Positions 5,322 to 39,628 of a stretch of 52,504 nt of DNA are shown one piece after another (the first letter of the stretch is position 1; each line of letters opens with the position of its first letter). The notes beneath the pieces are model-generated. The model was not told the DNA's origin. It did no database searches and saw only the letters and a list, made by a program, of their open reading frames with translations. A program made the translations under genes and the position numbers. This DNA comes from Acidobacteriaceae bacterium. GTDB lineage: Bacteria > Patescibacteriota > Doudnabacteria > UBA920 > O2-02-FULL-48-8. Where the stretch lies: the NCBI GenBank assembly GCA_050258715.1, contig JBLMZH010000016.1:1-52504 (forward strand). The letters are read 5' to 3'.

Positions 5322-5396
5322 TGGGGTGCCTGAAGGGAGTTGAACCCTCGTGACCGCTTCCACAGAGCGGCGTTCTACCGTTGAACTACAGGCACC
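5322..5396 (-). tRNA. tRNA-His (anticodon GTG) with encoded G-1 and CCA
   Basis: Manual cloverleaf. G-1 plus acceptor GTGCCTG/CAGGCAC, D stem GTTC/GAAC, anticodon stem CCGCT/AGCGG with loop CTGTGGA, T arm GAGGG-TTCAACT-CCCTT, then C73-CCA. Confidence 0.9.
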
Positions 5397-5977: not shown

Positions 5978-7090
5978 ATGAAATACTTTTTCATTTCCCT
6001 GGGGATAGTCCTGGTTACCTCCATCTTTGTTCTGTTTCATTGGTTCATTTACAGGACTTCCGTGCGTTTTTTCGATATCCAGTCCGTTTGGCTGAGAAGG
6101 ACCCTGCTTATTACTCTCGTAACTTTGAGCCTGAGCATAGTCTTGGCCAGCCTGATTTCCTCCCGATACTTTAACGGCTTCTCCCAAGCTTTATACAAAT
6201 TGATCGGCAACTGGTCGGGGTTCTTCGCCTATTTCTTCATCGCCTCGTGCCTTGCCTGGATCATTTACGCCTTTACCCGCGACCCCAGCGCCATGAAGTG
6301 GGTCACGGGTATTTTGTATGGTCTGGCCGTGGTCGTGGGAATTTATGGGATGATCAACGCCAGAAATTTGCGGACCACCGAATTTGAAGTCGCGATTCCG
6401 AACCTCCCCCAAGAATGGCAAGGCAAGACTGCGGTTTGGGTTTCCGACGTGCACTTAGGCCAGGTCAATAACGACAAGTACGCAGACGAAATCATTGACC
6501 GCACCAACGAGCTTCAACCGGATATTGTTTTCTTAGGCGGCGATTATTTTGACGGCCTGGCCGTGGACAGCTTCAAGCTCGCGGATAAACTTAAAAAAAT
6601 CAACGCCAAGTGGGGCACATACTTCATTACCGGAAACCACGAGGAGTTCGCGGACGATTACGACCACAATCAATACATTGAAGCCTTGGACCTTTCCGGA
6701 ATTCGAATTTTAAACAACGAAAAGATCGACGTGCACGGGATGCAGCTCGTTGGCGTTGACTTTCACGCCACCAACAGCCGCAAGGACTTTCAGGCGGAAA
6801 TGGACAGCATCGACGTGGACAAAACAAAACCCGCGATTTTGCTCAAGCACGTTCCGAGCGCTTTGGATATCAGCGAGAAGGAAGGAATATCATTGCAGAT
6901 CTCAGGGCACACTCACCGCGGCCAAATTTTCCCCGGCGGCCTGCTTTCATGCTTAGTCTACAGAGGGTACGATTACGGTTTCAAGAGCCACGGCAAACTG
7001 CAGGTCATCACGAGCAGCGGTGCTGGAACTTTTGGCCCGGCCATGAGAGTCGGAACGGTTTCGGAGATCGTTAAGATCACCTTCAAATAA
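5978..7090 (+). CDS. Membrane-anchored metallophosphoesterase (calcineurin-like, YkuE/YaeI-type)
   Basis: N-terminal TM helices, then the motifs DVHLG, GGDYFD, GNHE and GHTHRGQ. Confidence 0.85.
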   Translation: MKYFFISLGIVLVTSIFVLFHWFIYRTSVRFFDIQSVWLRRTLLITLVTLSLSIVLASLISSRYFNGFSQALYKLIGNWSGFFAYFFIASCLAWIIYAFTRDPSAMKWVTGILYGLAVVVGIYGMINARNLRTTEFEVAIPNLPQEWQGKTAVWVSDVHLGQVNNDKYADEIIDRTNELQPDIVFLGGDYFDGLAVDSFKLADKLKKINAKWGTYFITGNHEEFADDYDHNQYIEALDLSGIRILNNEKIDVHGMQLVGVDFHATNSRKDFQAEMDSIDVDKTKPAILLKHVPSALDISEKEGISLQISGHTHRGQIFPGGLLSCLVYRGYDYGFKSHGKLQVITSSGAGTFGPAMRVGTVSEIVKITFK

Positions 7091-7630
7091 ATGCTCCAGT
7101 TGGACATTGCGATTTTTTATGCCATCAACCACCTGCCGCACCCGGCCTTTTTAAATTTGTTTTCGCAGATCGTTCATTACGCGACCTTGGGCGGGTTGAT
7201 CTACTATCCTTTTTTTATTTTCCTTTTTTTGCTGAAGGATTATAAAAAACTGGCAGTCCTTGCTGCCGGATCGTCTCTTGTAACTTATATTGTCACAGAC
7301 CTTATTTTAAAAAATTTTTTCGACCGGGTACGGCCGTTTAAGGCCTTAGTGGACGTTAATTACGTGCCGAATTCCCCCGGCAGTTTTTCCTTCCCTTCCG
7401 GCCAAACTGGCACGGCATTTGCCGTAGCTATGATATTCGTTTTGCTTTTCCCCAGAAAAATCCAAACCTATTTGGTTTTGGCTTTTGCTTTTCTCGTTGC
7501 GCTGGACCGGATTTACATGGGGCATCACTATCCGTCGGATGTCCTGGCTGGAGCTTTAATCGGCGCCTTGGTTTCTCTTTTAATTAACGCTTTCGTGAAA
7601 AACTCCCGCTTGTCCGCAACAGCAGCCTGA
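7091..7630 (+). CDS. PAP2-family lipid phosphatase (variant C2 motif)
   Basis: KNFFDRVRP / PSGQT / DRIYMGHHYPSDV match the PAP2 tripartite motif, except Q replaces the usual H of PSGH. The ATG directly abuts the upstream TAA. Confidence 0.8.
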   Translation: MLQLDIAIFYAINHLPHPAFLNLFSQIVHYATLGGLIYYPFFIFLFLLKDYKKLAVLAAGSSLVTYIVTDLILKNFFDRVRPFKALVDVNYVPNSPGSFSFPSGQTGTAFAVAMIFVLLFPRKIQTYLVLAFAFLVALDRIYMGHHYPSDVLAGALIGALVSLLINAFVKNSRLSATAA

Positions 7631-8076: not shown

Positions 8077-8151
8077 TGGTGCCCCCGGAGGGAATCGAAC
8101 CCCCATATCCGGCTTAGAAGTCCGGAGTTCTATCCATTGAACTACGAGGGC
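8077..8151 (-). tRNA. tRNA-Arg (anticodon TCT) with encoded CCA
   Basis: Acceptor GCCCTCG/CGGGGGC, D stem GTTC/GAAC, anticodon loop CTTCTAA, T arm GGGGG-TTCGATT-CCCTC, then A73-CCA. There is an A31-G39 mismatch in the anticodon stem. Confidence 0.85.
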
Positions 8152-15416: not shown

Positions 15417-16075
15417 TATTTAATTGAAGTTAAGAATTTTTGGGAATTTAGGTGGCGTTCAATGATGTATTCCACGAACTCATTAACGGCCTTGTGGAGC
15501 TTCCTTATGTCGGACTTGCCACTGATGAGATCCTGGTCGTCGAGGAAGTCGTCTTTTTCGATCTGCGTCAGCAGATCTTTTAAGTTTTGAGGCAGCTGCC
15601 AGTCGCTCCTGACATGCCTGATCGAGAAACCCAGGGAGCTTAAGAGCTTCAAGGAATAGCTGTCGATCGTGGCGAACAATTGGTTTTCGGAAAGGTCGCG
15701 GGATTCTAAAGCGGTCAAAAATTGGATGAGATGGTCGAAGGCCACGACATTAGCCTGCTCGTCCGCGGTCAGCTTGACCATAAGTTCCGCCGCGTAGAAT
15801 GCCGCGGCCGTCTTGGACAGATCATGTTTGATCTTAAGGAAAGGCTTGACGGTCTTGGAGGAAATAAGAGTCGGCAGCATATCCCTCCCGGTGGCCTCAA
15901 AGGATATCAAGGTCAAATCCTGAAAAGAACCTGAAAGCTTGCTTTTGGCAAGCCTGATCCCTCTGGCCAAAATCCTGACCTTGCCCGCCTCCCTCGAAAA
16001 AATGGTCGCGATCTGATCAGCTTCCCTGTAATTTTGTTTCCGAAGGATAATACCAGTCAGCTTCCTGTATCTCAT
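15416..16075 (-). CDS. recO: DNA repair protein RecO
   Basis: N-terminal OB-fold pattern GIILRKQNYREADQIATIFSREAGKVRILARGIR. Overlaps ileS by 4 nt. Confidence 0.85.
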   Translation of the reverse strand: MRYRKLTGIILRKQNYREADQIATIFSREAGKVRILARGIRLAKSKLSGSFQDLTLISFEATGRDMLPTLISSKTVKPFLKIKHDLSKTAAAFYAAELMVKLTADEQANVVAFDHLIQFLTALESRDLSENQLFATIDSYSLKLLSSLGFSIRHVRSDWQLPQNLKDLLTQIEKDDFLDDQDLISGKSDIRKLHKAVNEFVEYIIERHLNSQKFLTSIK

Positions 16076-19000
16076 GTCCTGGTGATGGTTATCGAGATCG
16101 AAGAACCGTCAATTTGAACCGGTTCCGCCTCGGTTTTTTCCTTGCTGACCTTATGGACAAAGGTCTTTTCTTTGTCGAATAAAGCCATGGCCAGACTTAA
16201 GTTTTGGTCAGCTGTATCATATGACAAATTAACGGTTTCGCCAACCTTTAGCCCGGTTTTCTTGCGCAAATCCTGCACCAGTCGCTCGAGTTCGCGCGCC
16301 AATCCTTCGACTTTAAGTTCGTCGGTAATGGAAACGTCGAGGCTGACGGATTCAGCCCCGCCCTTGCCTGAGAATTCCAAAGTTTTGACATTGACCTCGT
16401 CGGAGACGACCGCTTCCAATTCTTGGGGCAAAGCGGATCCGGATAAAGTTTTGTACGACAGTTTGCTTAACGGCTGCCTGACCTTAATAGCCGCGGCCTT
16501 GCGCTGAGCGTGCGTTTGCTCCACGATCTTCTGGGCCAGTTCCATATCCGAAAGAAGTTTCAGCTCGTCCGAAGAAAGTTCCCTTGTCTTAGGCCACGAA
16601 CTTAAGTGCACCGATTCCTCATCGGTTTGCTTTCGAAGCTCTTGCCAGATCGTTTCCGACAGGAAGGGAAGGAAGGGCGCAATCAGCTGCGACAAAGTTT
16701 TCAGCACTTGATAGAGAGTCTGGTAAACGGCCGGGCCTTTGGTCGTCCTTGAACGCCTGACATACCACGTGGACAGCTCGAGAATAAACTGTTCGATCGC
16801 CCGGCTGGCCTTAAAGACGTCGAAGGAATCGAGGCTTTCCGTGACCAAATTCGTCAGCTGCTGAAGCCTCAAGAGAATCCATTCGTCCATGACCGACCCT
16901 TTTTCCTTTTTGGAGTCTTGGGTCCAGTTGTCGAAGTTGGCATAGGTCGCAAAGAAGCTTAAAACGTTCCAAAGGGTCAGGAAATATTTTCGGACGATCA
17001 AATCCAAATCCTTGATCGCAAAAAGTTTCGAGTCACCGGGCTGGTTCACCGAGTACATGTACCAGCGCAAAGCGTCTATCCCCTGCACGTTGATGACTTT
17101 CCAGGGATCAATGACGTTGCCTTTTGACTTGCTCATCTTCTGGCCTTTTTCGTCCTGAAGATGCCCGAGGTTGATGACGTTCAAATAAGCCGGTCCTTTA
17201 TCAAGAAGGGTCGAGATCGCGAGCAGAGTGTAGAACCAGCCGCGGGTCTGATCAATGGCCTCGGAAATGAAATCTGCCGGGAACTGCTGGTTGGGCCCGT
17301 TGATCTTGTCCTGGTTTTCGAACGGATAGTGCCATTGCGCAAACGGCATGGCTCCCGAATCGAACCAGACATCGAGCACGGCCGGCACGCGCGAGGATTC
17401 GCCGCCGCACTTTTCGCACTTCAATTTGACTTCATCAATGTAAGGCCGGTGAAGGTCAGGCAGGCTCAAATAAACCTCGAAAAAGTCGCCGAAATTCGGA
17501 TAATCCCTGCCCATCTCATAATACTGCTTCAAAAGCCAAATCAAGTCGCCGTGAGTGACCACCAATACCCGTTTGTTCTTCAGCTTGCCGTTTAAATCCT
17601 TTACGAAGCTCAACGCCCGCTGCTGCAGCTGTTCATAGGTCTCGCCGCCTTGAGGTGCTATAGTCCAGCGGTCCTTTTCGGGCGAGCCCGTCATCAGTTC
17701 ATCGACCGGCCGGCCGTTGTAGATCCCCATGTTGTATTCGCGCAGCCGTTCGTCGAACGCCACGGGAACGCCAAGGATTTTGCCCACGATCTCAGCCGTG
17801 TGTTTGGTGCGCAACAAATCCGAAGCGTAGATCATGTCGATTCCGCCGCGCTCCTTAAGCTTAAGCGCCAAACCTTCCGCTTCCTTCACGCCGCGTTCCG
17901 TGAGGTCCCTCTCGACCTTCTCGGGATAATTGCTGGCAATGTTCAGTTCATTGCTTGCCGCAAAACCGTGGCGCGCGAAATAGAACAGGTTGGAGTTGAG
18001 ATTCATTTCCGCAATGCTGCCCACGATCTGGTAATTGTGGCACGAATTGCATTCCCAGATCGGGAGCGGCGTGCCCCAGTAGCGTTCGCGCGAAATCGCC
18101 CAGTCTTTGATGTCCTTGAGCCATTCGCCGAACCGGCCGCGTTTGATGTAATCCGGCACCCAATTGACCTTCTCGTTGTTGGCCAGCAACTTTTCACTGA
18201 GCTTGCTCATTCTTATAAACCACGAGTTCCGGGCGTAGTACAAAAGCGGCGTGCCGCAGCGCCAGCAGAAAGGATAGTCGTGTTCGTAGGCTTCGGTCTT
18301 TAAAAGAATATTGTGTTCTTTAAGATAATCGATGATCTTGTGTTCGGTCTTTTCGTCCTTAACAAAATCCCCGGCCAGGTCCGCGGGCACAAAATCAAAG
18401 AACCGGCCCTGTTCATTGACCGTATGAACTTTAGGCAAGCCGATCTTTTCGCCGAGCTGATAGTCTTCTTCGCCGTACATGACCGCAGTATGCACGACCC
18501 CCGTGCCGTCGGTCGTGGTCACGAAATCCGCCGGATAAACTTTGTACGATTTTTCCGACTGCAGCGGTTTGATCTCGAACAGCGGCCGGTATTCAAGTCC
18601 GACCAAAGACGAGCCCTTGAATTCTTCCAGGACTTCAAATTGATATTCGGAGATCGCAGACAGACGATCCTTGGCCAAGATCCAAATTTCGTCGCCCGAT
18701 TTGACCTTAACGTAAGTGATGTCAGCGGAGACAGCCAAAGCGATGTTGCCGGGAAGCGTCCACGGCGTGGTCGTCCAGGAAAGGATATAAGTCTTGGGTT
18801 GGTCCTTTAGTTCGAACTTGATGTAGACCGAAGTTTCCTTGACCTTCTTGTAGCCTTGAGCCACTTCGTGGGTTGAAAGCGGGGTTTCGCAGCGCGGGCA
18901 ATAGTGTACGACCTTGTGTCCAAGATAGATCAAATCCTTGTCCCAAATTTGTTTCAACAAATACCACACGGTTTCAATATAGGAATTATGGTAAGTCACG

Positions 19001-19461
19001 TAAGGGTCGTCCATGTCCACCCAAAAGCCCATGCGGTGGGTCAGCTTTTCCCATTCTTCCTTGTATTGCCAAACCGATGATTTGCATAGCCGGTTGAACT
19101 CGATGATGCTTTCCTGGACGGTCGGCTTGATGGATTCGATCTGTTTTTTGCCGGAAATGCCAAGCTGCTTTTCAACCTGCAGTTCGACCGGAAGCCCGTG
19201 CGTGTCCCAGCCAGCCTTGCGCAACACGAACTTGCCGCGCATGGTTTGAAAACGCGGAATCAGGTCCTTGAAGGCGCGCGCCTCGATGTGGTGAATGCCC
19301 GGCTTGGCATTGGCCGTGGGCGGTCCTTCAAAGAACACAAATCTCGGCTTGTCTTTTGTCGCCTTGAGCGTCTGTTTGAAGATCTGATTGTCTTCCCAAA
19401 ATTTTAAAACTTCTTCTTCTAATTTTGGAAATTCTGGTTTTGGATCGAGCGGTTTGAACAT
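16072..19461 (-). CDS. ileS: Isoleucyl-tRNA synthetase (type 2) carrying an internal histidine-phosphatase-family domain
   Basis: HIGH-type PGIHHIEARAF, editing-domain TTPWTLPGN, WGTPLPIW, DLHRPYID, KMSKS (aa 775-779). Residues about 489-665 form an inserted RHG...N / LLRT.HTAE / THG domain. Confidence 0.95.
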   Translation of the reverse strand: MFKPLDPKPEFPKLEEEVLKFWEDNQIFKQTLKATKDKPRFVFFEGPPTANAKPGIHHIEARAFKDLIPRFQTMRGKFVLRKAGWDTHGLPVELQVEKQLGISGKKQIESIKPTVQESIIEFNRLCKSSVWQYKEEWEKLTHRMGFWVDMDDPYVTYHNSYIETVWYLLKQIWDKDLIYLGHKVVHYCPRCETPLSTHEVAQGYKKVKETSVYIKFELKDQPKTYILSWTTTPWTLPGNIALAVSADITYVKVKSGDEIWILAKDRLSAISEYQFEVLEEFKGSSLVGLEYRPLFEIKPLQSEKSYKVYPADFVTTTDGTGVVHTAVMYGEEDYQLGEKIGLPKVHTVNEQGRFFDFVPADLAGDFVKDEKTEHKIIDYLKEHNILLKTEAYEHDYPFCWRCGTPLLYYARNSWFIRMSKLSEKLLANNEKVNWVPDYIKRGRFGEWLKDIKDWAISRERYWGTPLPIWECNSCHNYQIVGSIAEMNLNSNLFYFARHGFAASNELNIASNYPEKVERDLTERGVKEAEGLALKLKERGGIDMIYASDLLRTKHTAEIVGKILGVPVAFDERLREYNMGIYNGRPVDELMTGSPEKDRWTIAPQGGETYEQLQQRALSFVKDLNGKLKNKRVLVVTHGDLIWLLKQYYEMGRDYPNFGDFFEVYLSLPDLHRPYIDEVKLKCEKCGGESSRVPAVLDVWFDSGAMPFAQWHYPFENQDKINGPNQQFPADFISEAIDQTRGWFYTLLAISTLLDKGPAYLNVINLGHLQDEKGQKMSKSKGNVIDPWKVINVQGIDALRWYMYSVNQPGDSKLFAIKDLDLIVRKYFLTLWNVLSFFATYANFDNWTQDSKKEKGSVMDEWILLRLQQLTNLVTESLDSFDVFKASRAIEQFILELSTWYVRRSRTTKGPAVYQTLYQVLKTLSQLIAPFLPFLSETIWQELRKQTDEESVHLSSWPKTRELSSDELKLLSDMELAQKIVEQTHAQRKAAAIKVRQPLSKLSYKTLSGSALPQELEAVVSDEVNVKTLEFSGKGGAESVSLDVSITDELKVEGLARELERLVQDLRKKTGLKVGETVNLSYDTADQNLSLAMALFDKEKTFVHKVSKEKTEAEPVQIDGSSISITITRT

Positions 19462-21702: not shown

Positions 21703-22155
21703 ATGCCGACATACGCCAGCAACAAAAAGGCCTTTCATGACTACTCGATCGAAGAAAGCTTCGAGGCTGGGTTAGCTTTGGCCGGGCACGAAGTCAAAAG
21801 CATCAGGGCGGGCAACGTCAGCTTAAACGGGGCTTTCGTGACTATTCGAAACGGCCAGGCTTATCTTCGGAACGGTTACATTGGCAAATACAAGCAGGCT
21901 TCAAACCTCGAAGGCTATGACGAGGCCAGGGAGCGCAAACTTCTGATTAAAAAATCGGAGCTGGAAAGACTGGCGGGCAAAACCAAAGAAAAAGGCCTGA
22001 CCTTAATCCCGCTTGAGATCTATACCAAAAGAAGCTGGATCAAGCTTAAGGTCGGCTTGGGCCGCGGCAAAAAACAATACGACAAACGCGACTCGATCAG
22101 GAAAAAGGAAGACAAACGAAAGATTGATCGGATGATCAGAACTAGAACAAAATAA
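21703..22155 (+). CDS. smpB: SsrA-binding protein SmpB
   Basis: NKKAFHDYSIEE.FEAGL.L.G.EVKS.R pattern and a basic C-terminal tail. Confidence 0.9.
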   Translation: MPTYASNKKAFHDYSIEESFEAGLALAGHEVKSIRAGNVSLNGAFVTIRNGQAYLRNGYIGKYKQASNLEGYDEARERKLLIKKSELERLAGKTKEKGLTLIPLEIYTKRSWIKLKVGLGRGKKQYDKRDSIRKKEDKRKIDRMIRTRTK

Positions 22156-22555: not shown

Positions 22556-22942
22556 TGGTGGAGCTGGGGAGAATTGCACTCCCGTCCAGAAGGCGAAGAA
22601 AAACATCACTACAAGTTTAGTCCGCTTGAATTTTTAGTCTGAGGCAATAAAAACGGACGAAAACGGCCTCAGCTTAAGCTCTTAGTTTCCGGTCAAATTC
22701 GAGCGAAAGTGACCGTAAGCCCGAAGATGACGTTTCATTCCGCGTACGGGCGTAAGCGGATGAAACGGGTAGTTACCTAAATTAGGCGACTGCCATTACA
22801 GGGGCGAACGTAAAAGCGTTCGTAATCCTGCTTACCAAAGATTTGGCATTTGTGATTTGCCTGAGCCCTTTTAGCCGGATGATCAGGCGTTGCCGGACTT
22901 GCGATATTTTCCAAAGAACTCCTGTCGAAGCTTGTCAGCCCC
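22556..22942 (-). ncRNA. ssrA: tmRNA (SsrA)
   Basis: 5' end GGGGCUGACAAGCUUCGACAGG. 3' end GGACGGGAG-UGCAAUU-CUCCC-CAGCUCC-ACCA with the G3-U70 acceptor pair. Candidate tag frame 22847-22782 encodes AKSLVSRITNAFTFAPVMAVA then stop (tentative). Confidence 0.9.
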
Positions 22943-30847: not shown

Positions 30848-31930
30848 ATGCGAATTGCTCAAATTGCTCCGCTTTGGATCCCCATTCCGCCCAGGACCTA
30901 TGGGGGCATTGAATTAATGGTCTTTAACCTGGTGGAAGAACTGAAAAAGCGCGGCCACGAGATCGTGCTTTACGCCAGCGGCGACTCGCATGCCGGCGTT
31001 GAAACCAAATCAGTGGTTGAACAAGCACTCTGGCTGCAAAAGCAGGTCCGCAATCCCCACGCGGCCATAATCCGAATGCTCAATCAGATCAGGCAGGATG
31101 TGGGAGCGTACGACCTCATCCACAATCATTTTAATTTTTTTATGTTTCCCTTGGCCAATGAGCCAAAGGCTCCGCCGATTTTGACCACGATCCACAACCC
31201 CATTGACCAAAGCCTGGCTGAGACCATCAAACAGTTCCCCAATCTTCATTTTTGCGTTTTGTCCGAAGATGAGCGCAAGAGCGCCGAGGAATTCGGCATC
31301 GCGACCGACGGAGTGGTTCCCAACGGCATCGAAATCGAAAAATATACGTTCAATCCGAAGATGGGCGACTATCTCCTTTATCTTGGCCGCTTAAACCGGG
31401 AAAAAGGAATCGCGACCGCGCTCAGCGTGGCCAAAAAAAGCAACACCAAGATCGTCGTCGCCGGCAACATCGTCGGCGCGGAAGAATGGACCTACTTCAT
31501 GCACGAAGTCCAACCCAACCTTAACGAAGAAAACGTCAAATTCGTGGGCCAGGTGGACTTCGCGGAAAAGATCAAACTTCTCTCAAACGCCAAGGCTCTG
31601 CTGTTTCCCATTGACCGCCGCGAACCATTCGGCCTGGTCATGATCGAAGCCATGGCCTGCGGCACGCCGGTCATCGCCTTCGGCAAGGGTTCGGTTCCCG
31701 AAATCGTCGAGAACGGCAAGAACGGGTTCGTGGTCAACACCGAGGACGAGATGGTCCAAATGGTGGACAAGATCGGGTTCATCAACCGCGAGCATTGCCG
31801 GAAGGCTGTCGAGGAAAAATACACGATCAAGCACATGACCGACAAATACGAAGAAATTTACCAGAAGATTCTAAAAAAGAACAAAAATTTTTCCAGCATA
31901 GAACGTTCATTAAGCAGTTCAAAAGCATAA
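30848..31930 (+). CDS. GT4-family (group 1) glycosyltransferase, paralog 1
   Basis: N-terminus MRIAQIAPLW.PIPP..YGGIE, C-terminus EPFGLVMIEAMACGTPVIAF..GS.PEIVENGKNGFVV. Confidence 0.85.
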   Translation: MRIAQIAPLWIPIPPRTYGGIELMVFNLVEELKKRGHEIVLYASGDSHAGVETKSVVEQALWLQKQVRNPHAAIIRMLNQIRQDVGAYDLIHNHFNFFMFPLANEPKAPPILTTIHNPIDQSLAETIKQFPNLHFCVLSEDERKSAEEFGIATDGVVPNGIEIEKYTFNPKMGDYLLYLGRLNREKGIATALSVAKKSNTKIVVAGNIVGAEEWTYFMHEVQPNLNEENVKFVGQVDFAEKIKLLSNAKALLFPIDRREPFGLVMIEAMACGTPVIAFGKGSVPEIVENGKNGFVVNTEDEMVQMVDKIGFINREHCRKAVEEKYTIKHMTDKYEEIYQKILKKNKNFSSIERSLSSSKA

Positions 31931-31935
31931 ACAAA

Positions 31936-33021
31936 ATGCCAAAAAAACTCAGGATAGCCCAGATCGCGCCGCTTTGGATAACCATTCCGCCCAAAAAATA
32001 CGGAGGGATCGAGCGGATCATTGCTTTGCTCGCCGACGGATTGGTCGAACGCGGGCATGACGTAACGCTCTTTGCATCCCCCGGGTCGAAGACCAAGGGT
32101 AAACTGGTTTCAGTCTTTGACCAGCCGCTTTTGGAAGCCGGCGTTCCCTGGTCAAATCCCGTCTGGAACCTAAGGAATTTGTCCAAGGCCTACCAAATGG
32201 CCAATGAAGGCAAATTCGACATCATCCACACTCATCTGGACATCTGGTCCATGTTTTTCTGCAACTTAAGCCGCACCCCGACCATCCAGACCATGCACAA
32301 TCCCCTCTACCGCACGAATGCCGATGCGGACAAGAATGACCGCCTGCGCATCTACCGCGAAGAGTCAGGCAACATAAACATGGTCTTTATCAGCGAATCC
32401 GCCAGAAATTGCGCGAACGTCAAATTCAAGGACAAGAACGCGCGGATCATTTACAACGCCAGCGACATCAGAGATTTCAAGTTCAACCCCAAGCCCAAGG
32501 ATCATTTTGTCTGGATCGCAAGAATGGACAAGCACAAAGGGATCGAAAACGCGATCGCGGCCGCGGAAAAATTGAATCTCAATCTGCTCGTCGCCGGCCG
32601 CATCGATCCGGCCAAAACCGATTATTTCAAAAATGTCATCAAGCCGCACTTAAATTCCAAAATCAAGTACGTCGGGGAACTTTCCGAAAAACAGCTGTCC
32701 AAGTTTTACGGCGAAGCCAAGGCTCTGCTTTATCCGATCGAATGGGAAGAGCCGTTCGGCCTGGTCGTAACCGAAGCCATGGCTTGCGGCACGCCGGTTA
32801 TTGCCTATGACCGCGGATCGATGCGGGAACTTATCGACCACGGAAAAACCGGATTTGTGATTCCGAGCAACATCAACGCCTTGGTCTCGGCCATCAAGCA
32901 AATAGACAAAATCGACCGCGCCGAAGTCCGAAAACAGGCGGTCAAAAGATTCGGCTCCGATGTGATGGTGGAAAATTACGAGCGGGCCTATTACGAAATC
33001 TTAAAGAAAGCAAAACGATGA
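31936..33021 (+). CDS. GT4-family glycosyltransferase, paralog 2
   Basis: MPKKLRIAQIAPLWITIPPKKYGGIE and EPFGLVVTEAMACGTPVIAY. The true ATG is at 31936. The track ORF from 31795 overlaps paralog 1. Confidence 0.85.
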   Translation: MPKKLRIAQIAPLWITIPPKKYGGIERIIALLADGLVERGHDVTLFASPGSKTKGKLVSVFDQPLLEAGVPWSNPVWNLRNLSKAYQMANEGKFDIIHTHLDIWSMFFCNLSRTPTIQTMHNPLYRTNADADKNDRLRIYREESGNINMVFISESARNCANVKFKDKNARIIYNASDIRDFKFNPKPKDHFVWIARMDKHKGIENAIAAAEKLNLNLLVAGRIDPAKTDYFKNVIKPHLNSKIKYVGELSEKQLSKFYGEAKALLYPIEWEEPFGLVVTEAMACGTPVIAYDRGSMRELIDHGKTGFVIPSNINALVSAIKQIDKIDRAEVRKQAVKRFGSDVMVENYERAYYEILKKAKR

Positions 33022-34145
33022 GGAAACTCCGAATCGGCGTCATGGTCACGGGCCATTTCGCCGTTCCGCCGCCAAAAAATGTAATCTACGCGCCTTACGA
33101 CGTGGCTGCCGCAATAAGCCTGGGACTGGCCCAGCGCGGGCACAAGGTTTCTTTCTTCGCTCCTAAAGGATCAAAGCTTAGCGGGGTCAATATCATCGAG
33201 TGTCCGATCCCTGCCCTGTTTGATCCGAACAAAGCCGGAATTTTGTTTGAGCCCGAGGTCCGCGACCTCGAGCGCGAAAAGATCGAAAACCTCTGGGACC
33301 AATATATCATCAGCCGCATGTACAAAGAAGCGCTGGCGGGCAAGCTCGATGCTTTGCACATCCATCCTGTGGACCGGGCCTTGCCGTTTGCCTCGATCAA
33401 CCAGACCATTCCCACTGTTTATACCCTGCACGACCCGATCTACCCCTGGCGCATGAAGCTTTTCAAAATGTTCTACAGTCCAAACCAGCATTATGTGGCG
33501 ATCAGCAAATCGCAGGGCAATTCGGCCAAAGGGCTGCCTATTGCCGCCACCATTTACAACGGCGTGGATTTGAAAGCCTTCCCTTATTCCGCAAAGGCCC
33601 AGGACCGGCTCCTGTTTGTCGGGCGAATCAAGCCGACCAAGGGTGTCGCGGAAGCGGTCAAGGTCGCTGCTAAAACCGGACAAAAACTGGACATCCTGGG
33701 AATTTTTGGCCGCTACGATCAGGATTATTTCATGAAAGAAGTCCAACCGTTTTTAAACGAACAGATCAGATACATCGGCTACGTCCCCCACGACGAGCTT
33801 TATAAATATTATGGCAAAGCAAAAGCTGTTTTGATGCCGACCAAATGGGACGAGCCGTTCGGCTTGGTCTCTGTCGAGGCTATGGCTTCGGGAACTCCCG
33901 TGATCGCGTTTGACCGCGGCTCAATGCCGGAAATAATAAAAGACGGCAAAACGGGATTTTTGGTCAAGGACGTTGCAACCATGTGCAAGGCCGTTTCCAA
34001 GATCGATGAAATAAAGCGCGAAGACTGCCGGAAACAGGTCGAAGAAAAATTCTCCGACGACCGGATGGTCGACGGTTACGAAGAACTATTTTACAAACTT
34101 GCGGAACGAAAAAATCTGAAAAAAAGAATCGCTATCCCAGCGTAA
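33018..34145 (+). CDS. GT4-family glycosyltransferase, paralog 3 (more divergent N-terminus)
   Basis: EPFGLVSVEAMASGTPVIAFDRGSMPEIIKDGKTGFLV. Has an ATGA overlap with paralog 2. Confidence 0.85.
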   Translation: MRKLRIGVMVTGHFAVPPPKNVIYAPYDVAAAISLGLAQRGHKVSFFAPKGSKLSGVNIIECPIPALFDPNKAGILFEPEVRDLEREKIENLWDQYIISRMYKEALAGKLDALHIHPVDRALPFASINQTIPTVYTLHDPIYPWRMKLFKMFYSPNQHYVAISKSQGNSAKGLPIAATIYNGVDLKAFPYSAKAQDRLLFVGRIKPTKGVAEAVKVAAKTGQKLDILGIFGRYDQDYFMKEVQPFLNEQIRYIGYVPHDELYKYYGKAKAVLMPTKWDEPFGLVSVEAMASGTPVIAFDRGSMPEIIKDGKTGFLVKDVATMCKAVSKIDEIKREDCRKQVEEKFSDDRMVDGYEELFYKLAERKNLKKRIAIPA

Positions 34146-36942: not shown

Positions 36943-37980
36943 CTAGCTAATTGAGGCTAAATCGTCGCCCAGTTTCCGCCCTTCCTTAAAGTAAATCAGC
37001 AGCGCCGCAAGGAACGGCAACAAGTAATAGACTATCCGAAACAGGCCGACAACCAGGATCAGTCCGGCCGCGCTTAAGCCTAAGCGCGAAAAGAATAAAA
37101 TTAAGACGGCATCTTCCGACCCGAATCCGCCCGGTATCATGGACAGTTCGCCGATTAAGACGCTGATAAAAAATCCGGCCCCAACCGCAACCAGCGGCGA
37201 ATACAAGCCCAGCGCCTTCAGGCAAAAATACAGGCAAAAAATCGTAAACGCCCAATCGACTGCGATTATCCCGATCGCAAGAACCAGCGTTTTGGGATCT
37301 GATTTGATCAGATTCCGGTATTCCTCAAGCTTGTCTTCGATCTCGCCAATGTGCTGCGGCAAAGTCTCGTTCGAAAACTTCCTTGCCAGCTTAACAACCG
37401 CCGCAATTACTCTGCGCGAAAACCTCGAGGAAAATACGATCCCCGTCACAAACAAAACCAAGACGACAAAAACAAACAACGCCGCGCCTTCGATCCACGA
37501 CGGCCCGGGAATAACACCGGCCCTAAACGCATAAATTATGGAGAGAGGAAGCAAAAAAATAAAAACGATGTTATTGACGTATGAATGGATGAGCGACATC
37601 ATCACGACTTCCTTCGGCTTGACTCCCCACTTCTTCAAAAACAAAATCCTTACCGCAAAGCCGACGGCATTTCCCGTGGTGAAAATGTGGTTCATCGCAA
37701 TAGTCAAAAAACCGACCATGGTGGCTTCTCCAAACGGCGCCGGCATCTTTATGATCTTTCCGACTAAAGCGTAGCCCAAGCCTGCCAAAATCAGCGAGGC
37801 AAAAGCCGAAACAACGGCTGGAATGGCCCACCGCAAGTCCGCCTGCCTTAAGATATCGGACAACTCCGCGCGATTAAGGTATAAAAAATATCCCGCTGCG
37901 GCCAAAAGCAAAAAGAAGATTCCCCAGACCCAGAATCTCGGTTTTTTGATGAAATTTCCCAGTTTAAGATTTTGAGACAT
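36943..37980 (-). CDS. Lysyl-PG synthase TM region / flippase-like protein (UPF0104, MprF N-terminal-type)
   Basis: 8-TM protein with a family-typical layout. Overlaps the upstream synthase gene by 17 nt. Confidence 0.7.
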   Translation of the reverse strand: MSQNLKLGNFIKKPRFWVWGIFFLLLAAAGYFLYLNRAELSDILRQADLRWAIPAVVSAFASLILAGLGYALVGKIIKMPAPFGEATMVGFLTIAMNHIFTTGNAVGFAVRILFLKKWGVKPKEVVMMSLIHSYVNNIVFIFLLPLSIIYAFRAGVIPGPSWIEGAALFVFVVLVLFVTGIVFSSRFSRRVIAAVVKLARKFSNETLPQHIGEIEDKLEEYRNLIKSDPKTLVLAIGIIAVDWAFTIFCLYFCLKALGLYSPLVAVGAGFFISVLIGELSMIPGGFGSEDAVLILFFSRLGLSAAGLILVVGLFRIVYYLLPFLAALLIYFKEGRKLGDDLASIS

Positions 37981-39628
37981 TTTGCAGCGCCAGACCGGCC
38001 TTAATTAGATTGACGGGTAATCCCGGATAAGCCAAAAATCGATCCTGCCAAAGCGGCTTGAATTTCGACTTGTATTCCCTCAAGCCCTTAAACGCGAATA
38101 TGCCGTTGAGGTAATTATAGATCTGAGCAAGCCCTTTCTCCAAAAGCGGAGATTCTTCGCCCTGCCCCAGTCCGGCAAGCGGAGCCAGACCAAGATTGAA
38201 GGTTTTAAAGCCTTTTTGCCAAAAATGAACGATCAGGTTCAAAAACAAAAAATCCATGGCTCCTTTTGGCGCTGTCCTTGCAAACCGCATGAGATCAATC
38301 TGGGCTTCGCCTTTCATAAACGACGGAACTTCGTTGGCAAAGGCCTCGATTTTGCCCTGGTGCTCGATCACAAACAATCTTTGGTGAGCCAAATCGTTTT
38401 TGTTGAATTGGCCGACGGCAAACCCCCGCTCTTTGCGGTTCCTTTCGCTCAGCCATTCGCGCGACACCCTGTCCGCTTCAGCAAGAACTTCTTCGGACAA
38501 AGGCGGCTCGTACGCTTTGAAAATAAAACCTTCATCCTTTAGCTTCCTTTGGATTTTGCGGAAATATTTATTGACCGCCACCGTTCCGATAAACTGCTCA
38601 ATGTCGACCACGGCCTCTTCTCCGATCTTGACCGTCTTCATGCCCGCCTTGCGAAGTTCAGCCAAAAATCTTCCGGTAGTCTGATAGAACATGGGGATCC
38701 AGCCGTTGTCCCTGCTGTAACCGACGAAGCTGCTGATCAGTTCGGCCGCATCGCCCTCTTCGGAAACGACGGGATCCCCCAAGACCATTGCCGTATCCCT
38801 GAACACCCGGTAAGAAATAAAACCTTTCCGTTCCAGAAAAAAATAATTCTTATCAGGCAGCAACTGAAAATATCCAAGCTGATACTTTGGGTTAGACAAA
38901 AGAATGGAATGGGCCAGGCTTCGCTCATAAGGCAAGGTTCGAAAACGGTACTGCCAGGGCCGAAACAGGCTGTAGATGATCAGTCCCAAAGTTAAGAGTC
39001 CCATTACCTTAAGCGAATCAATAAACCAAGCCGCGTGCCTGGTTAAAGGTTCGATCCCGGGATTGCCCAATGAAGCGTAGGTTTGAAGCGTCTTAATCAC
39101 TGACCGCCCGATCCCGAATTCGGTCCCAAAATCCCGCTCTTCGAGAAAATCAAATCCCACTGTCCCGTAAACGATCGCGAGAAAAAACAGCGCCAGCGAT
39201 CTGACAACACCCTGTTTTATGCTGGCATACCCCGTCTTTGCCGTGAATCTGCCCCTAAAACCCCAAAGCACCAGCAAGGCTACGCCAAAAACGGCCAGCG
39301 GGACCCAATGAATGCGGTGGCGCAAAAGCAAAATTATCTGGACAGAAGTCGCGCCAAAAGCCAGCCGCCAGGCGTTTTGCTTTCGCCGGAACAAATTGAA
39401 TGACAAATAAATCAAAACCACGGCCAGAACCAGGGAAAGCAAGCGGCTTAGATGGAAAGTGCGCGATGAAAAAAGCTCCTGAAGCCTTTGGTGGCGCTGA
39501 ATGAACCGTCCAAATTCCAGATCGATAAGAATCAGAAGTCCGCTTGAAAACACCACGGCCGAAACGATGACGTGGCCAAAGCTATAAATTTTATCCCTGA
39601 ACTTTTTAATATTGTTTGCAGTGGGCAT
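37964..39628 (-). CDS. Aminoacyl-phosphatidylglycerol synthase (MprF C-terminal type: TM anchor plus DUF2156 domain)
   Basis: ..GFISYRV......VLGDPV.., ..RKERGFAVG.., ..AFKGLREYKSKFKPLWQDRFLAY at the C-terminus. Confidence 0.8.
   Translation of the reverse strand: MPTANNIKKFRDKIYSFGHVIVSAVVFSSGLLILIDLEFGRFIQRHQRLQELFSSRTFHLSRLLSLVLAVVLIYLSFNLFRRKQNAWRLAFGATSVQIILLLRHRIHWVPLAVFGVALLVLWGFRGRFTAKTGYASIKQGVVRSLALFFLAIVYGTVGFDFLEERDFGTEFGIGRSVIKTLQTYASLGNPGIEPLTRHAAWFIDSLKVMGLLTLGLIIYSLFRPWQYRFRTLPYERSLAHSILLSNPKYQLGYFQLLPDKNYFFLERKGFISYRVFRDTAMVLGDPVVSEEGDAAELISSFVGYSRDNGWIPMFYQTTGRFLAELRKAGMKTVKIGEEAVVDIEQFIGTVAVNKYFRKIQRKLKDEGFIFKAYEPPLSEEVLAEADRVSREWLSERNRKERGFAVGQFNKNDLAHQRLFVIEHQGKIEAFANEVPSFMKGEAQIDLMRFARTAPKGAMDFLFLNLIVHFWQKGFKTFNLGLAPLAGLGQGEESPLLEKGLAQIYNYLNGIFAFKGLREYKSKFKPLWQDRFLAYPGLPVNLIKAGLALQNVSKS

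Follow-up and report, generated by a model that had tools for sequence, protein, structure and literature searches.

A PhoE-like histidine phosphatase domain nested in the CP3 module of a type-2 isoleucyl-tRNA synthetase of Patescibacteria

Why should an isoleucyl-tRNA synthetase (IleRS), a housekeeping enzyme, carry a histidine phosphatase in the midst of its catalytic-domain sequence? The question is raised by the ileS gene on the stretch of DNA analysed here (the window: all 52,504 nucleotides of contig JBLMZH010000016.1, assembly GCA_050258715.1), which encodes a type-2 IleRS with a branch-1 histidine phosphatase domain nested in its connective peptide 3 (CP3). The best reading is that of an active phosphomonoesterase, its activity predicted, tethered to a working synthetase. 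Taken whole, as an intact type-2 enzyme (IleRS2) with a nested, active PhoE-like phosphatase that plays an accessory role and acts on a small phosphomonoester, this reading has in our estimate a probability of about 0.5. An intact host, an intact phosphatase fold with its catalytic set, and ancient vertical inheritance with losses, considered alone, are held with great confidence. The two features concerned are as follows.

16072-19461, minus strand: ileS coding sequence, 1129 aa, type-2 isoleucyl-tRNA synthetase with nested phosphatase (open reading frame, TIGR00392, AlphaFold2 model).
17458-17997, minus strand: nested branch-1 histidine phosphatase domain, PhoE-like, residues 489-668 (PF00300, AlphaFold2, Foldseek).

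Is the inserted domain a complete phosphatase? The Pfam scan proposed in the initial annotation of this DNA gives a significant match to His_Phos_1 (PF00300) over residues 494-655, with E=2e-32 and 112.8 bits (117.7 for the insert alone) against a gathering cutoff of 21.7. A check of the sequence finds every motif quoted in that annotation at its reported place, both in the insert (RHG 497-499, SDLLRTKH 547-554, RLREYN 572-577, GGETYE 605-610 and VTHGD 635-639) and on the host side (WGTPLPIWEC 462-471, DLHRPY 669-674 and KMSKS 775-779). In an AlphaFold2 model of CP3 together with the insert, the mean predicted local distance difference test score (pLDDT) is 88.5, with values of 93-99 in the phosphatase. 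The top Foldseek match is PhoE (1H2E; E=3.7e-13, 28% identity, TM-score 0.75 normalised to the target); a mycobacterial hydrolase, PspA, TIGAR, CobC and Rv2419c come next, and the Foldseek probability is 1.00 for PhoE, PspA, CobC, TIGAR and the cofactor-dependent phosphoglycerate mutase (dPGM). Alignment and model together show a full set of predicted branch-1 catalytic residues on a confidently modelled PhoE-like fold. The key residues are these.

17965-17973, minus strand: R497-H498-G499, phosphate-binding Arg and predicted nucleophilic His; invariant in the stand-alone, IleRS and valyl-tRNA synthetase (ValRS) sets, although for IleRS and ValRS the search pattern itself required RHG.
17809-17811, minus strand: R551, second phosphate-binding Arg; conserved in 89/89 inserts, outside the search pattern.
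17737-17739, minus strand: E575, predicted general acid/base; Glu in 84/89, Asp in 5/89.
17551-17553, minus strand: H637, second catalytic His; conserved in 89/89.

These counts come from an alignment of 89 insert-bearing open reading frames (ORFs) taken from genome loci. Outside the search pattern, S547 and E607 are as constant as R551 and H637, R615 is present in all but one sequence (88/89), and the only replacement of E575 is the conservative one listed above; RHG and N504 show no exception either (100%), but they were part of the pattern. Pairwise identity is only ~35-37% among the inserts, compared with 55% in the IleRS flanks, so that the constancy of the catalytic residues implies strong purifying selection on the catalytic machinery. 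The domain is thus apparently a complete and active phosphatase, activity being a prediction.

Could it instead be a non-catalytic module of CP3, acting as a bulge in the structure, as a sensor of ligands or as a surface to which partners bind? CP3 is an exposed protein-protein interface in human IARS1 (PMC13439101), and the clade to which the window belongs has trimmed ~20-25 residues from the C-terminal part of the domain. Its inserts are 180-182 residues long, compared with a median of 198 (range 166-211) among the genome-locus inserts, and the match to PF00300 covers profile positions 2-164 of 194, leaving the C-terminal ~30 positions unmatched. The trimming is common to all members of the clade, however, and is therefore not damage. 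Moreover, catalytic residues that are invariant or conservatively replaced in 89 inserts at ~35% identity are typical of active enzymes, and the core that forms the pocket is modelled with pLDDT 93-99. We regard a purely non-catalytic role as improbable.

What kind of phosphatase is it? No named subfamily model in NCBIfam reaches its cutoff with the insert. The best named match, to CobC (TIGR03162), is sub-threshold at 88.4 bits against 162.9, and PspA scores 65 bits against 350. The initial annotation had placed the domain in the phosphoglycerate mutase family, a label which, with weak hits to dPGM models, might suggest that the cell's own dPGM, and hence a glycolytic step, had been fused to a housekeeping gene. 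These models fall well short, however (archaeal dPGM NF038349, 74.2 bits against 225; TIGR01258, 31.5 against 81.7; all PRK dPGM models far below cutoff). The C-terminal tail is absent, the top structural neighbours are phosphatases, and columns 578 and 639 of the alignment vary across the 89 inserts. These columns correspond to the mutase-specific Tyr after the catalytic Glu and Asn after the second His, in a register that we take to be that of E. coli GpmA. A mutase is thus very unlikely and was rejected on the sub-cutoff models, the variable mutase positions and the phosphatase-like fold neighbours. The initial annotation was right as to an intact histidine phosphatase, in its Pfam family, fold and catalytic set, but not as to a mutase. 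We therefore classify the insert, from its sequence and its modelled fold, as a probable PhoE-like phosphatase of no named subfamily.

Some branch-1 members are protein phosphatases, and the domain might be a phospho-switch of the SixA, PGAM5 or Sts-1 type, acting on IleRS itself or on another phosphoprotein to regulate translation. A weak match to SixA (TIGR00249, 33.6 bits) agrees with this, but it covers only the N-terminal 70 residues and lies far below the cutoff of 74.5. The nearest structures are small-molecule phosphatases, and no kinase or two-component gene stands beside ileS in the window or in the related loci. A regulatory protein phosphatase is, in our judgement, as improbable as the non-catalytic module considered above.

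Is the synthetase that surrounds this domain itself intact? The initial annotation described an uninterrupted ORF of 1129 residues, and this is borne out at 16072-19461 on the minus strand. The ileS equivalog model TIGR00392 matches the protein in two stretches with 873.2 bits against a cutoff of 621.4, and the Pfam tRNA-synt_1 match is likewise broken into two stretches around His_Phos_1. The remaining landmarks of the host enzyme are the following.

19288-19299, minus strand: class I signature, non-canonical, with G55-I-H-H58 (GXHH) in place of HXGH, from sequence.
17125-17139, minus strand: KMSKS loop, residues 775-779, from sequence.
16462-16887, minus strand: anticodon-binding domain, residues 859-1000 (PF08264, E=3.8e-28).
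16078-16419, minus strand: type-2 C-terminal domain DUF5915, residues 1015-1128 (PF19302, 46.1 bits against a cutoff of 27).

Across 49 full-length homologues from the Candidate Phyla Radiation (CPR), H57 and H58 are invariant, as are K775, M776, S777 and K778 of the KMSKS loop, with S779 nearly so. The Thr-rich segment W229-TTTPWTLP-237, which we take to be the editing motif of the CP1 domain, is also invariant, together with many further residues, and the isolated IleRS editing-domain structures 1WK8 and 1UE0 match the window protein. The C-terminus aligns with that of 8C8W, giving the type-2 organisation with no type-1 zinc-binding domain. The GXHH (G/AXHH) variant of the class I signature has been defined as the non-canonical IleRS2 signature that confers mupirocin hyper-resistance (PMC10485003). 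The full-length AlphaFold2 model has a mean pLDDT of 90.8, with nothing below 50, and a predicted TM-score (pTM) of 0.80; its TM-scores, normalised to the target, are 0.81 to 8C8V and 0.90 to 1ILE. The comparisons show all the parts of an IleRS in place: GXHH, KMSKS, WTTTPWT, and the anticodon-binding and type-2 C-terminal domains. As judged from its sequence, the gene product is a complete, working type-2 IleRS, for which isoleucine charging is predicted.

Where in the synthetase does the insert lie? The initial annotation had expected only a short linker at this place in an ordinary type-2 IleRS. In alignments of insert-less orthologues the segment VGS..EL.. is indeed followed by 4-32 residues and then by DLHRPYID, and residues 477 to 487 of PDB entry 8c8w (Priestia megaterium IleRS2) correspond to residues 489 to 669 of the window protein. 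The flanking elements, in the order in which the protein is read, are as follows.

17998-18105, minus strand: CP2-CP3 linker (DWAISRERYWG), then the N-terminal half of CP3, which holds one of the two zinc knuckles, C471-x-x-C474 (alignments; domain definitions from PMC7955072 and PMC7191050).
17374-17457, minus strand: C-terminal half of CP3 (DLHRPYIDEV...), which holds the other zinc knuckle, C682-x-x-C685 (alignments).
17353-17373, minus strand: DVWFDSG motif, where the chain re-enters the second half of the Rossmann fold (sequence, alignments).

The insert therefore sits between two CxxC knuckles, C471/C474 (18040-18051) and C682/C685 (17407-17418). The stretch first assigned to it, 17467-17997, spans residues 489-665; the 17997 end holds, and the other boundary now falls at residue 668 (17458). 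The initial annotation was likewise correct in placing the insert upstream of KMSKS and within the catalytic-domain sequence, but the site is the CP3 connective peptide and not the Rossmann core. Alignments place the insertion point in the zinc-knuckle hairpin of CP3, a peripheral and topologically variable module. Published structures are in keeping with this: the topology of CP3 varies among IleRSs, with zinc bound in the Thermus thermophilus enzyme, and the DW.ISR.RYWG segment is the 'CP2-CP3 linker' that lines the pocket for the tRNA 3'-end or reveromycin (PMC7955072, PMC7191050). In the full-length model both connectors between host and insert have pLDDT values of ~76-79, implying that they are short and ordered. 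The four zinc-knuckle cysteines are retained in only ~48 of the 89 insert-bearing IleRSs, so that the zinc site is dispensable in about half of the family.

An architecture as unusual as this might in principle be an assembly chimera, an intein or recently inserted mobile DNA, its oddity being the only point in favour of such an origin. The identical 1129-residue protein is, however, also found in an independent assembly, on a Logan contig (SRR24085919) where its gene again stands in the order smpB, argS, ileS, recO. A DNA pattern for the junction, WG[T/A]PL[P/A]-(gap)-RHGxxxxN, for which 0.00 chance matches are expected in shuffles of the window, matched at least 120 species-representative genomes, almost all of them Patescibacteria. 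Among the matches listed are Paceibacteria, Nomura-, Peregrini-/Peribacteria, Magasanik-, Falkow-, Giovannoni-, Zambryski-, Lipton- and Colwellbacteria, Spechtbacterales, and many records with the label 'Saccharibacteria'. A closed Nomurabacteria chromosome of 995 kb is among them too. The initial annotation had suggested looking for the same insert in IleRS homologues, and by tblastn a window-like insert lies colinear between IleRS flanks in 105 of the 120 genomes among the matches listed. Of the other matches listed, ~10 have a ~600-nt gap that holds a more divergent insert and 4 are chance hits.

Cluster representatives (50% identity), 1.84 billion in all, were also scanned without a word index, and the outcome agrees with this distribution. 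Most of the best 150 matches span both junctions and the insert, the full lengths of these insert-bearing representatives are ~1100-1250 residues, and PF00300 is present in 109 of the 120 best full-length hits. The architecture is thus a trait of many Patescibacteria, lineage-wide, and is not unique to the window contig. The window's own protein is named 'class I tRNA ligase family protein' at NCBI, and its relatives stand in public databases under generic names of this kind. Some insert-bearing representatives (P0171, P0204, P0241 and P0249) reach 1380-1470 residues and match in several separate stretches, so that they may contain additional inserted domains.

The initial annotation held that the insert is neither a terminal fusion nor an intein, and this agrees with its nested position in the domain scans and with the junctions. 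An intein was rejected, since no Hint or intein Pfam domain is hit and the junctions (...EMNL/NSNLF... and ...LSLP/DLHR...) have no Cys, Ser or Thr as the first residue of the insert or at +1 after it, and no terminal His-Asn. Recent mobility fares no better: insert and host co-diverge, and there is neither a shift in composition nor a repeat flanking the insert. With an identical protein in an independent assembly and more than 100 species genomes of the same architecture, one of them closed, we consider the probability of an artefact or a recent insertion to be negligible. Elsewhere, at one related locus on a contig end (ERZ25039501 contig_27761), ileS is fragmented, with inverted duplicated tRNA-synt_1 and His_Phos pieces, probably reflecting a local assembly problem. 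The metagenome-assembled genome from which the window comes is labelled 'Acidobacteriaceae bacterium', yet the relatives of its IleRS (Doudnabacteria and other Patescibacteria) and its synteny point to a Doudnabacteria-like CPR organism; the label is likely to be an error of binning or taxonomy.

How, then, did the domain come to be there? The divergence of the inserts tracks that of the IleRS flanks (Mantel r=0.82, reached by 0 of 2000 permutations). The GC content at third codon positions (GC3) is 0.71 in the insert, inside the gene's own range of 0.58-0.76, and no sign of recent acquisition was seen as a shift in GC or GC3 or as repeats flanking the insert. Taken together, these results imply one ancient insertion that was then inherited vertically. 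In a neighbour-joining tree built with the insert masked, insert-less IleRSs occupy three or four separate positions among the insert-bearing ones, although this tree is rough and has no support values. One insert-less representative, P0320, whose natural linker is the 5-residue GLELA, is placed in it beside the window's subclade and lies in the order smpB-argS-ileS; another, P0322, lies in the order ileS-recO-DUF11-LysM/M23-UvrD. Both arrangements are those of the window, implying that the insert-less forms are orthologues, not paralogues. The comparisons show an architecture of ancient origin that has been passed on vertically with ileS in much of Patescibacteria and that several syntenic orthologues have lost again, on separate occasions. 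Such repeated loss implies that the domain is dispensable for aminoacylation. The linker of P0322 (loci L123/L124) is 31 residues long and begins LSNFAVFASG, resembling the start of the insert, NSNLFYFARHG; it may be a relic of deletion, but the resemblance is too short to count as evidence.

What would the phosphatase do? We envisage a second, independent active site with the standard two-step chemistry of the superfamily. H498 would attack a phosphomonoester to give a phospho-histidine while R497, R551 and H637 hold the phosphate, and E575 would protonate the leaving group and then activate water. Because orthologues manage without the insert, this would be an accessory activity outside aminoacylation. 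By analogy with the closest relatives, PhoE, CobC and PspA, the likeliest substrate would be a small phosphomonoester, either a nucleotide or a phospho-metabolite. CP3 would then be a permissive, exposed docking site, which might offer a genome-reduced cell constitutive and stoichiometric expression of a second enzyme. A custom hidden Markov model (HMM), applied to the window and to the neighbours of ileS in 120+ fetched loci, found no His_Phos gene standing by itself, so that there is no Rosetta-stone partner.

Is the IleRS the only synthetase to be furnished in this way? Metagenome contigs were scanned for the corresponding junction in ValRS, WWGH[R/Q/K]IP-(gap)-RHGxxxxN, and it was found at 19 loci. 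Fourteen ORFs show the sequence DW.ISRQIWWGH.IP..CxxC..FFVRHGET.WN, and 13 of these match an HMM of the IleRS inserts with E values of 1e-32 to 3e-50; the fourteenth (L143) ends at a contig edge. Two full-length examples are genuine ValRSs, scoring 951 and 925 bits against a cutoff of 704 for NF004349, with the match split by the phosphatase. As in IleRS, the insert lies between two CxxC knuckles, here ahead of DTWFSSG, and its catalytic residues are conserved. The ValRS inserts are 27% identical to the IleRS inserts and 30% identical to stand-alone PhoE-like proteins, and they fall mostly in a clade of their own. Being no closer to the IleRS inserts than to free phosphatases, they suggest that ValRS acquired its domain separately in the same position, although the tree behind this is weak. 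Among the fetched loci, no contig carries both ileS and valS. Several of the ValRS loci (L127-L144, for example L140 and L144) come from Hainich groundwater samples labelled 01um/02um. That ValRS, too, has such a domain in the corresponding position suggests that placement in CP3 has been selected and is not accidental.

It is this recurrence that keeps alive a different and attractive idea, in which the phosphatase acts on the tRNA itself. It would strip a 2'/3'-phosphate or a pyrophosphate from A76 of tRNA-Ile (of tRNA-Val in the ValRS form) just before charging, repairing ends left by RNases or countering toxins that block the CCA end. The recurrence in a paralogous enzyme suggests a coupling to class Ia function, and the short, ordered connectors would suit it. 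The insert begins ~26 residues past the segment lining the A76 pocket, the CP2-CP3 linker (PMC7955072), and toxSAS toxins are described as pyrophosphorylating the CCA end of specific tRNAs and so blocking aminoacylation (PMC11559606; a bioRxiv preprint). Several points argue the other way. The inserts are not basic, with a median isoelectric point of 6.5, and fold topology in the model would place the RHG pocket at the far end of strand β1 from the attachment to CP3. The domain has been lost repeatedly without a neighbouring replacement, one would expect an enzyme of general repair to stand alone, and to our knowledge no branch-1 histidine phosphatase acts on RNA ends. On balance we think de-blocking of tRNA 3'-ends unlikely, and its fuller form, in which CPR IleRSs (ValRSs in other lineages) act in cis as synthetase-embedded repair or counter-defence enzymes against toxSAS-like toxins or RNase damage, a shade more so.

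We nevertheless prefer an accessory phosphomonoesterase of small substrates, and some of the points already made weigh against that preference. The count of losses, from which dispensability is drawn, depends on a neighbour-joining tree without bootstraps, and the conservation figures for RHG and N504 are inflated by the search pattern. Recurrence in one position of two paralogous synthetases exceeds what a mere convenient platform for expression would lead one to expect, and it points toward some coupling with class Ia catalysis or with tRNA.

The rest of the window holds several other noteworthy genes. The smpB gene (21703-22155, plus strand) adjoins a full-length transfer-messenger RNA gene (22556-22942, minus strand) whose tag is AKSLVSRITNAFTFAPVMAVA, and there are genes for tRNA-His (5322-5395) and tRNA-Arg(TCT) (8077-8151). 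An MprF-like aminoacyl-phosphatidylglycerol synthase is divided at 36943-39628 on the minus strand between two neighbouring ORFs with a slight overlap (LPG_synthase_TM followed by LPG_synthase_C); enzymes of this family take the aminoacyl group from aminoacyl-tRNA. At 5978-7630 (plus strand) a calcineurin-like metallophosphoesterase and a PAP2 phosphatase lie side by side, their folds unrelated to that of the IleRS insert. Three consecutive family-4 glycosyltransferase genes, two of them with weak 'GT4-conflict' Pfam matches, occupy 30848-34145 on the plus strand.

Few enzymes are as conserved and as well studied as the aminoacyl-tRNA synthetases, whose additional domains have more than once led to new biology, in editing, signalling and the assembly of complexes. 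Here a strongly constrained phosphatase is found inside the housekeeping IleRS of a large part of the CPR, with a distant relative in the same loop of ValRS, a pattern implying that organisms with minimal genomes have been selected for a phosphoesterase physically joined to class Ia synthetases. Were tRNA the substrate, this would be a new step of quality control or repair in translation, and de-blocking would be a third catalytic function of a class Ia synthetase, beside synthesis and editing. If the substrate were a metabolite, the enzyme would be a clear case of an essential protein used as the scaffold for a second activity. Either way, CP3 presents itself as a permissive loop through which domains could be engineered into IleRS and ValRS, and the natural insert-less orthologues supply a ready deletion design for experiments.

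How does this protein compare with known systems? Both of its parts belong to well-known families, and the sequences are public with automatic Pfam labels; it is their combination that is undescribed in the literature found. The initial annotation knew of no synthetase with an embedded phosphatase, and none was found in the literature on IleRS, tRNA synthetases, Patescibacteria or histidine phosphatases. A phosphatase in any synthetase is absent from the 2024 AARS Online catalogue of synthetase domains, and comparison of the full-length model with solved synthetase structures found none with such a domain. A homologue search with the insert only (92 candidates) returned only stand-alone PhoE-like proteins and is uninformative on other synthetases.

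The nearest known hosts are P. megaterium IleRS2 (8C8U/V/W) and T. thermophilus IleRS (1ILE), which share its sequence and fold (E=9e-251, with the TM-scores of 0.81-0.90 given above). With these enzymes it has in common the type-2 C-terminal domain, a zinc-knuckle CP3 like that of T. thermophilus, and the GXHH signature of mupirocin hyper-resistant IleRS2, but where they have ~9 residues it has an enzyme domain of 180. The insert, in turn, has the catalytic residues and approximately the size of PhoE (YhfR) of Geobacillus stearothermophilus (1H2E/1EBB), CobC, PspA and Rv2419c, the stand-alone relatives being 173-219 residues long. These are free-standing, whereas the insert does without the C-terminal ~30 profile positions and has its termini plugged into CP3. 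A precedent for an IleRS with an extra, unrelated enzyme domain is given by NCBIfam NF040702 ('isoleucine--tRNA ligase, N-acetyltransferase domain-containing'), but the domain there is a GNAT in another IleRS lineage, and the window protein scores 310 against a cutoff of 1999. The Rv2228c-type RNase H/acid phosphatase (NF005567), second-best NCBIfam match of the insert at 82.5 bits, similarly joins a CobC/PhoE-like phosphatase to a nucleic-acid enzyme; it is, however, an end-to-end fusion with a different partner, and the insert falls below the cutoff of 326.

The ValRS with a CP3 phosphatase shares the domain family, the zinc-knuckle hairpin and the catalytic set, although the host enzyme is different and the inserts are only ~27% identical. 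The CP1 editing domain of IleRS, ValRS and LeuRS is likewise a connective peptide that brings a second hydrolytic active site into the sequence of the Rossmann fold. CP1, however, is universal, acts on an aminoacyl ester and is needed for fidelity, whereas the CP3 insert is restricted to certain lineages, dispensable, and predicted to be a phosphoesterase.

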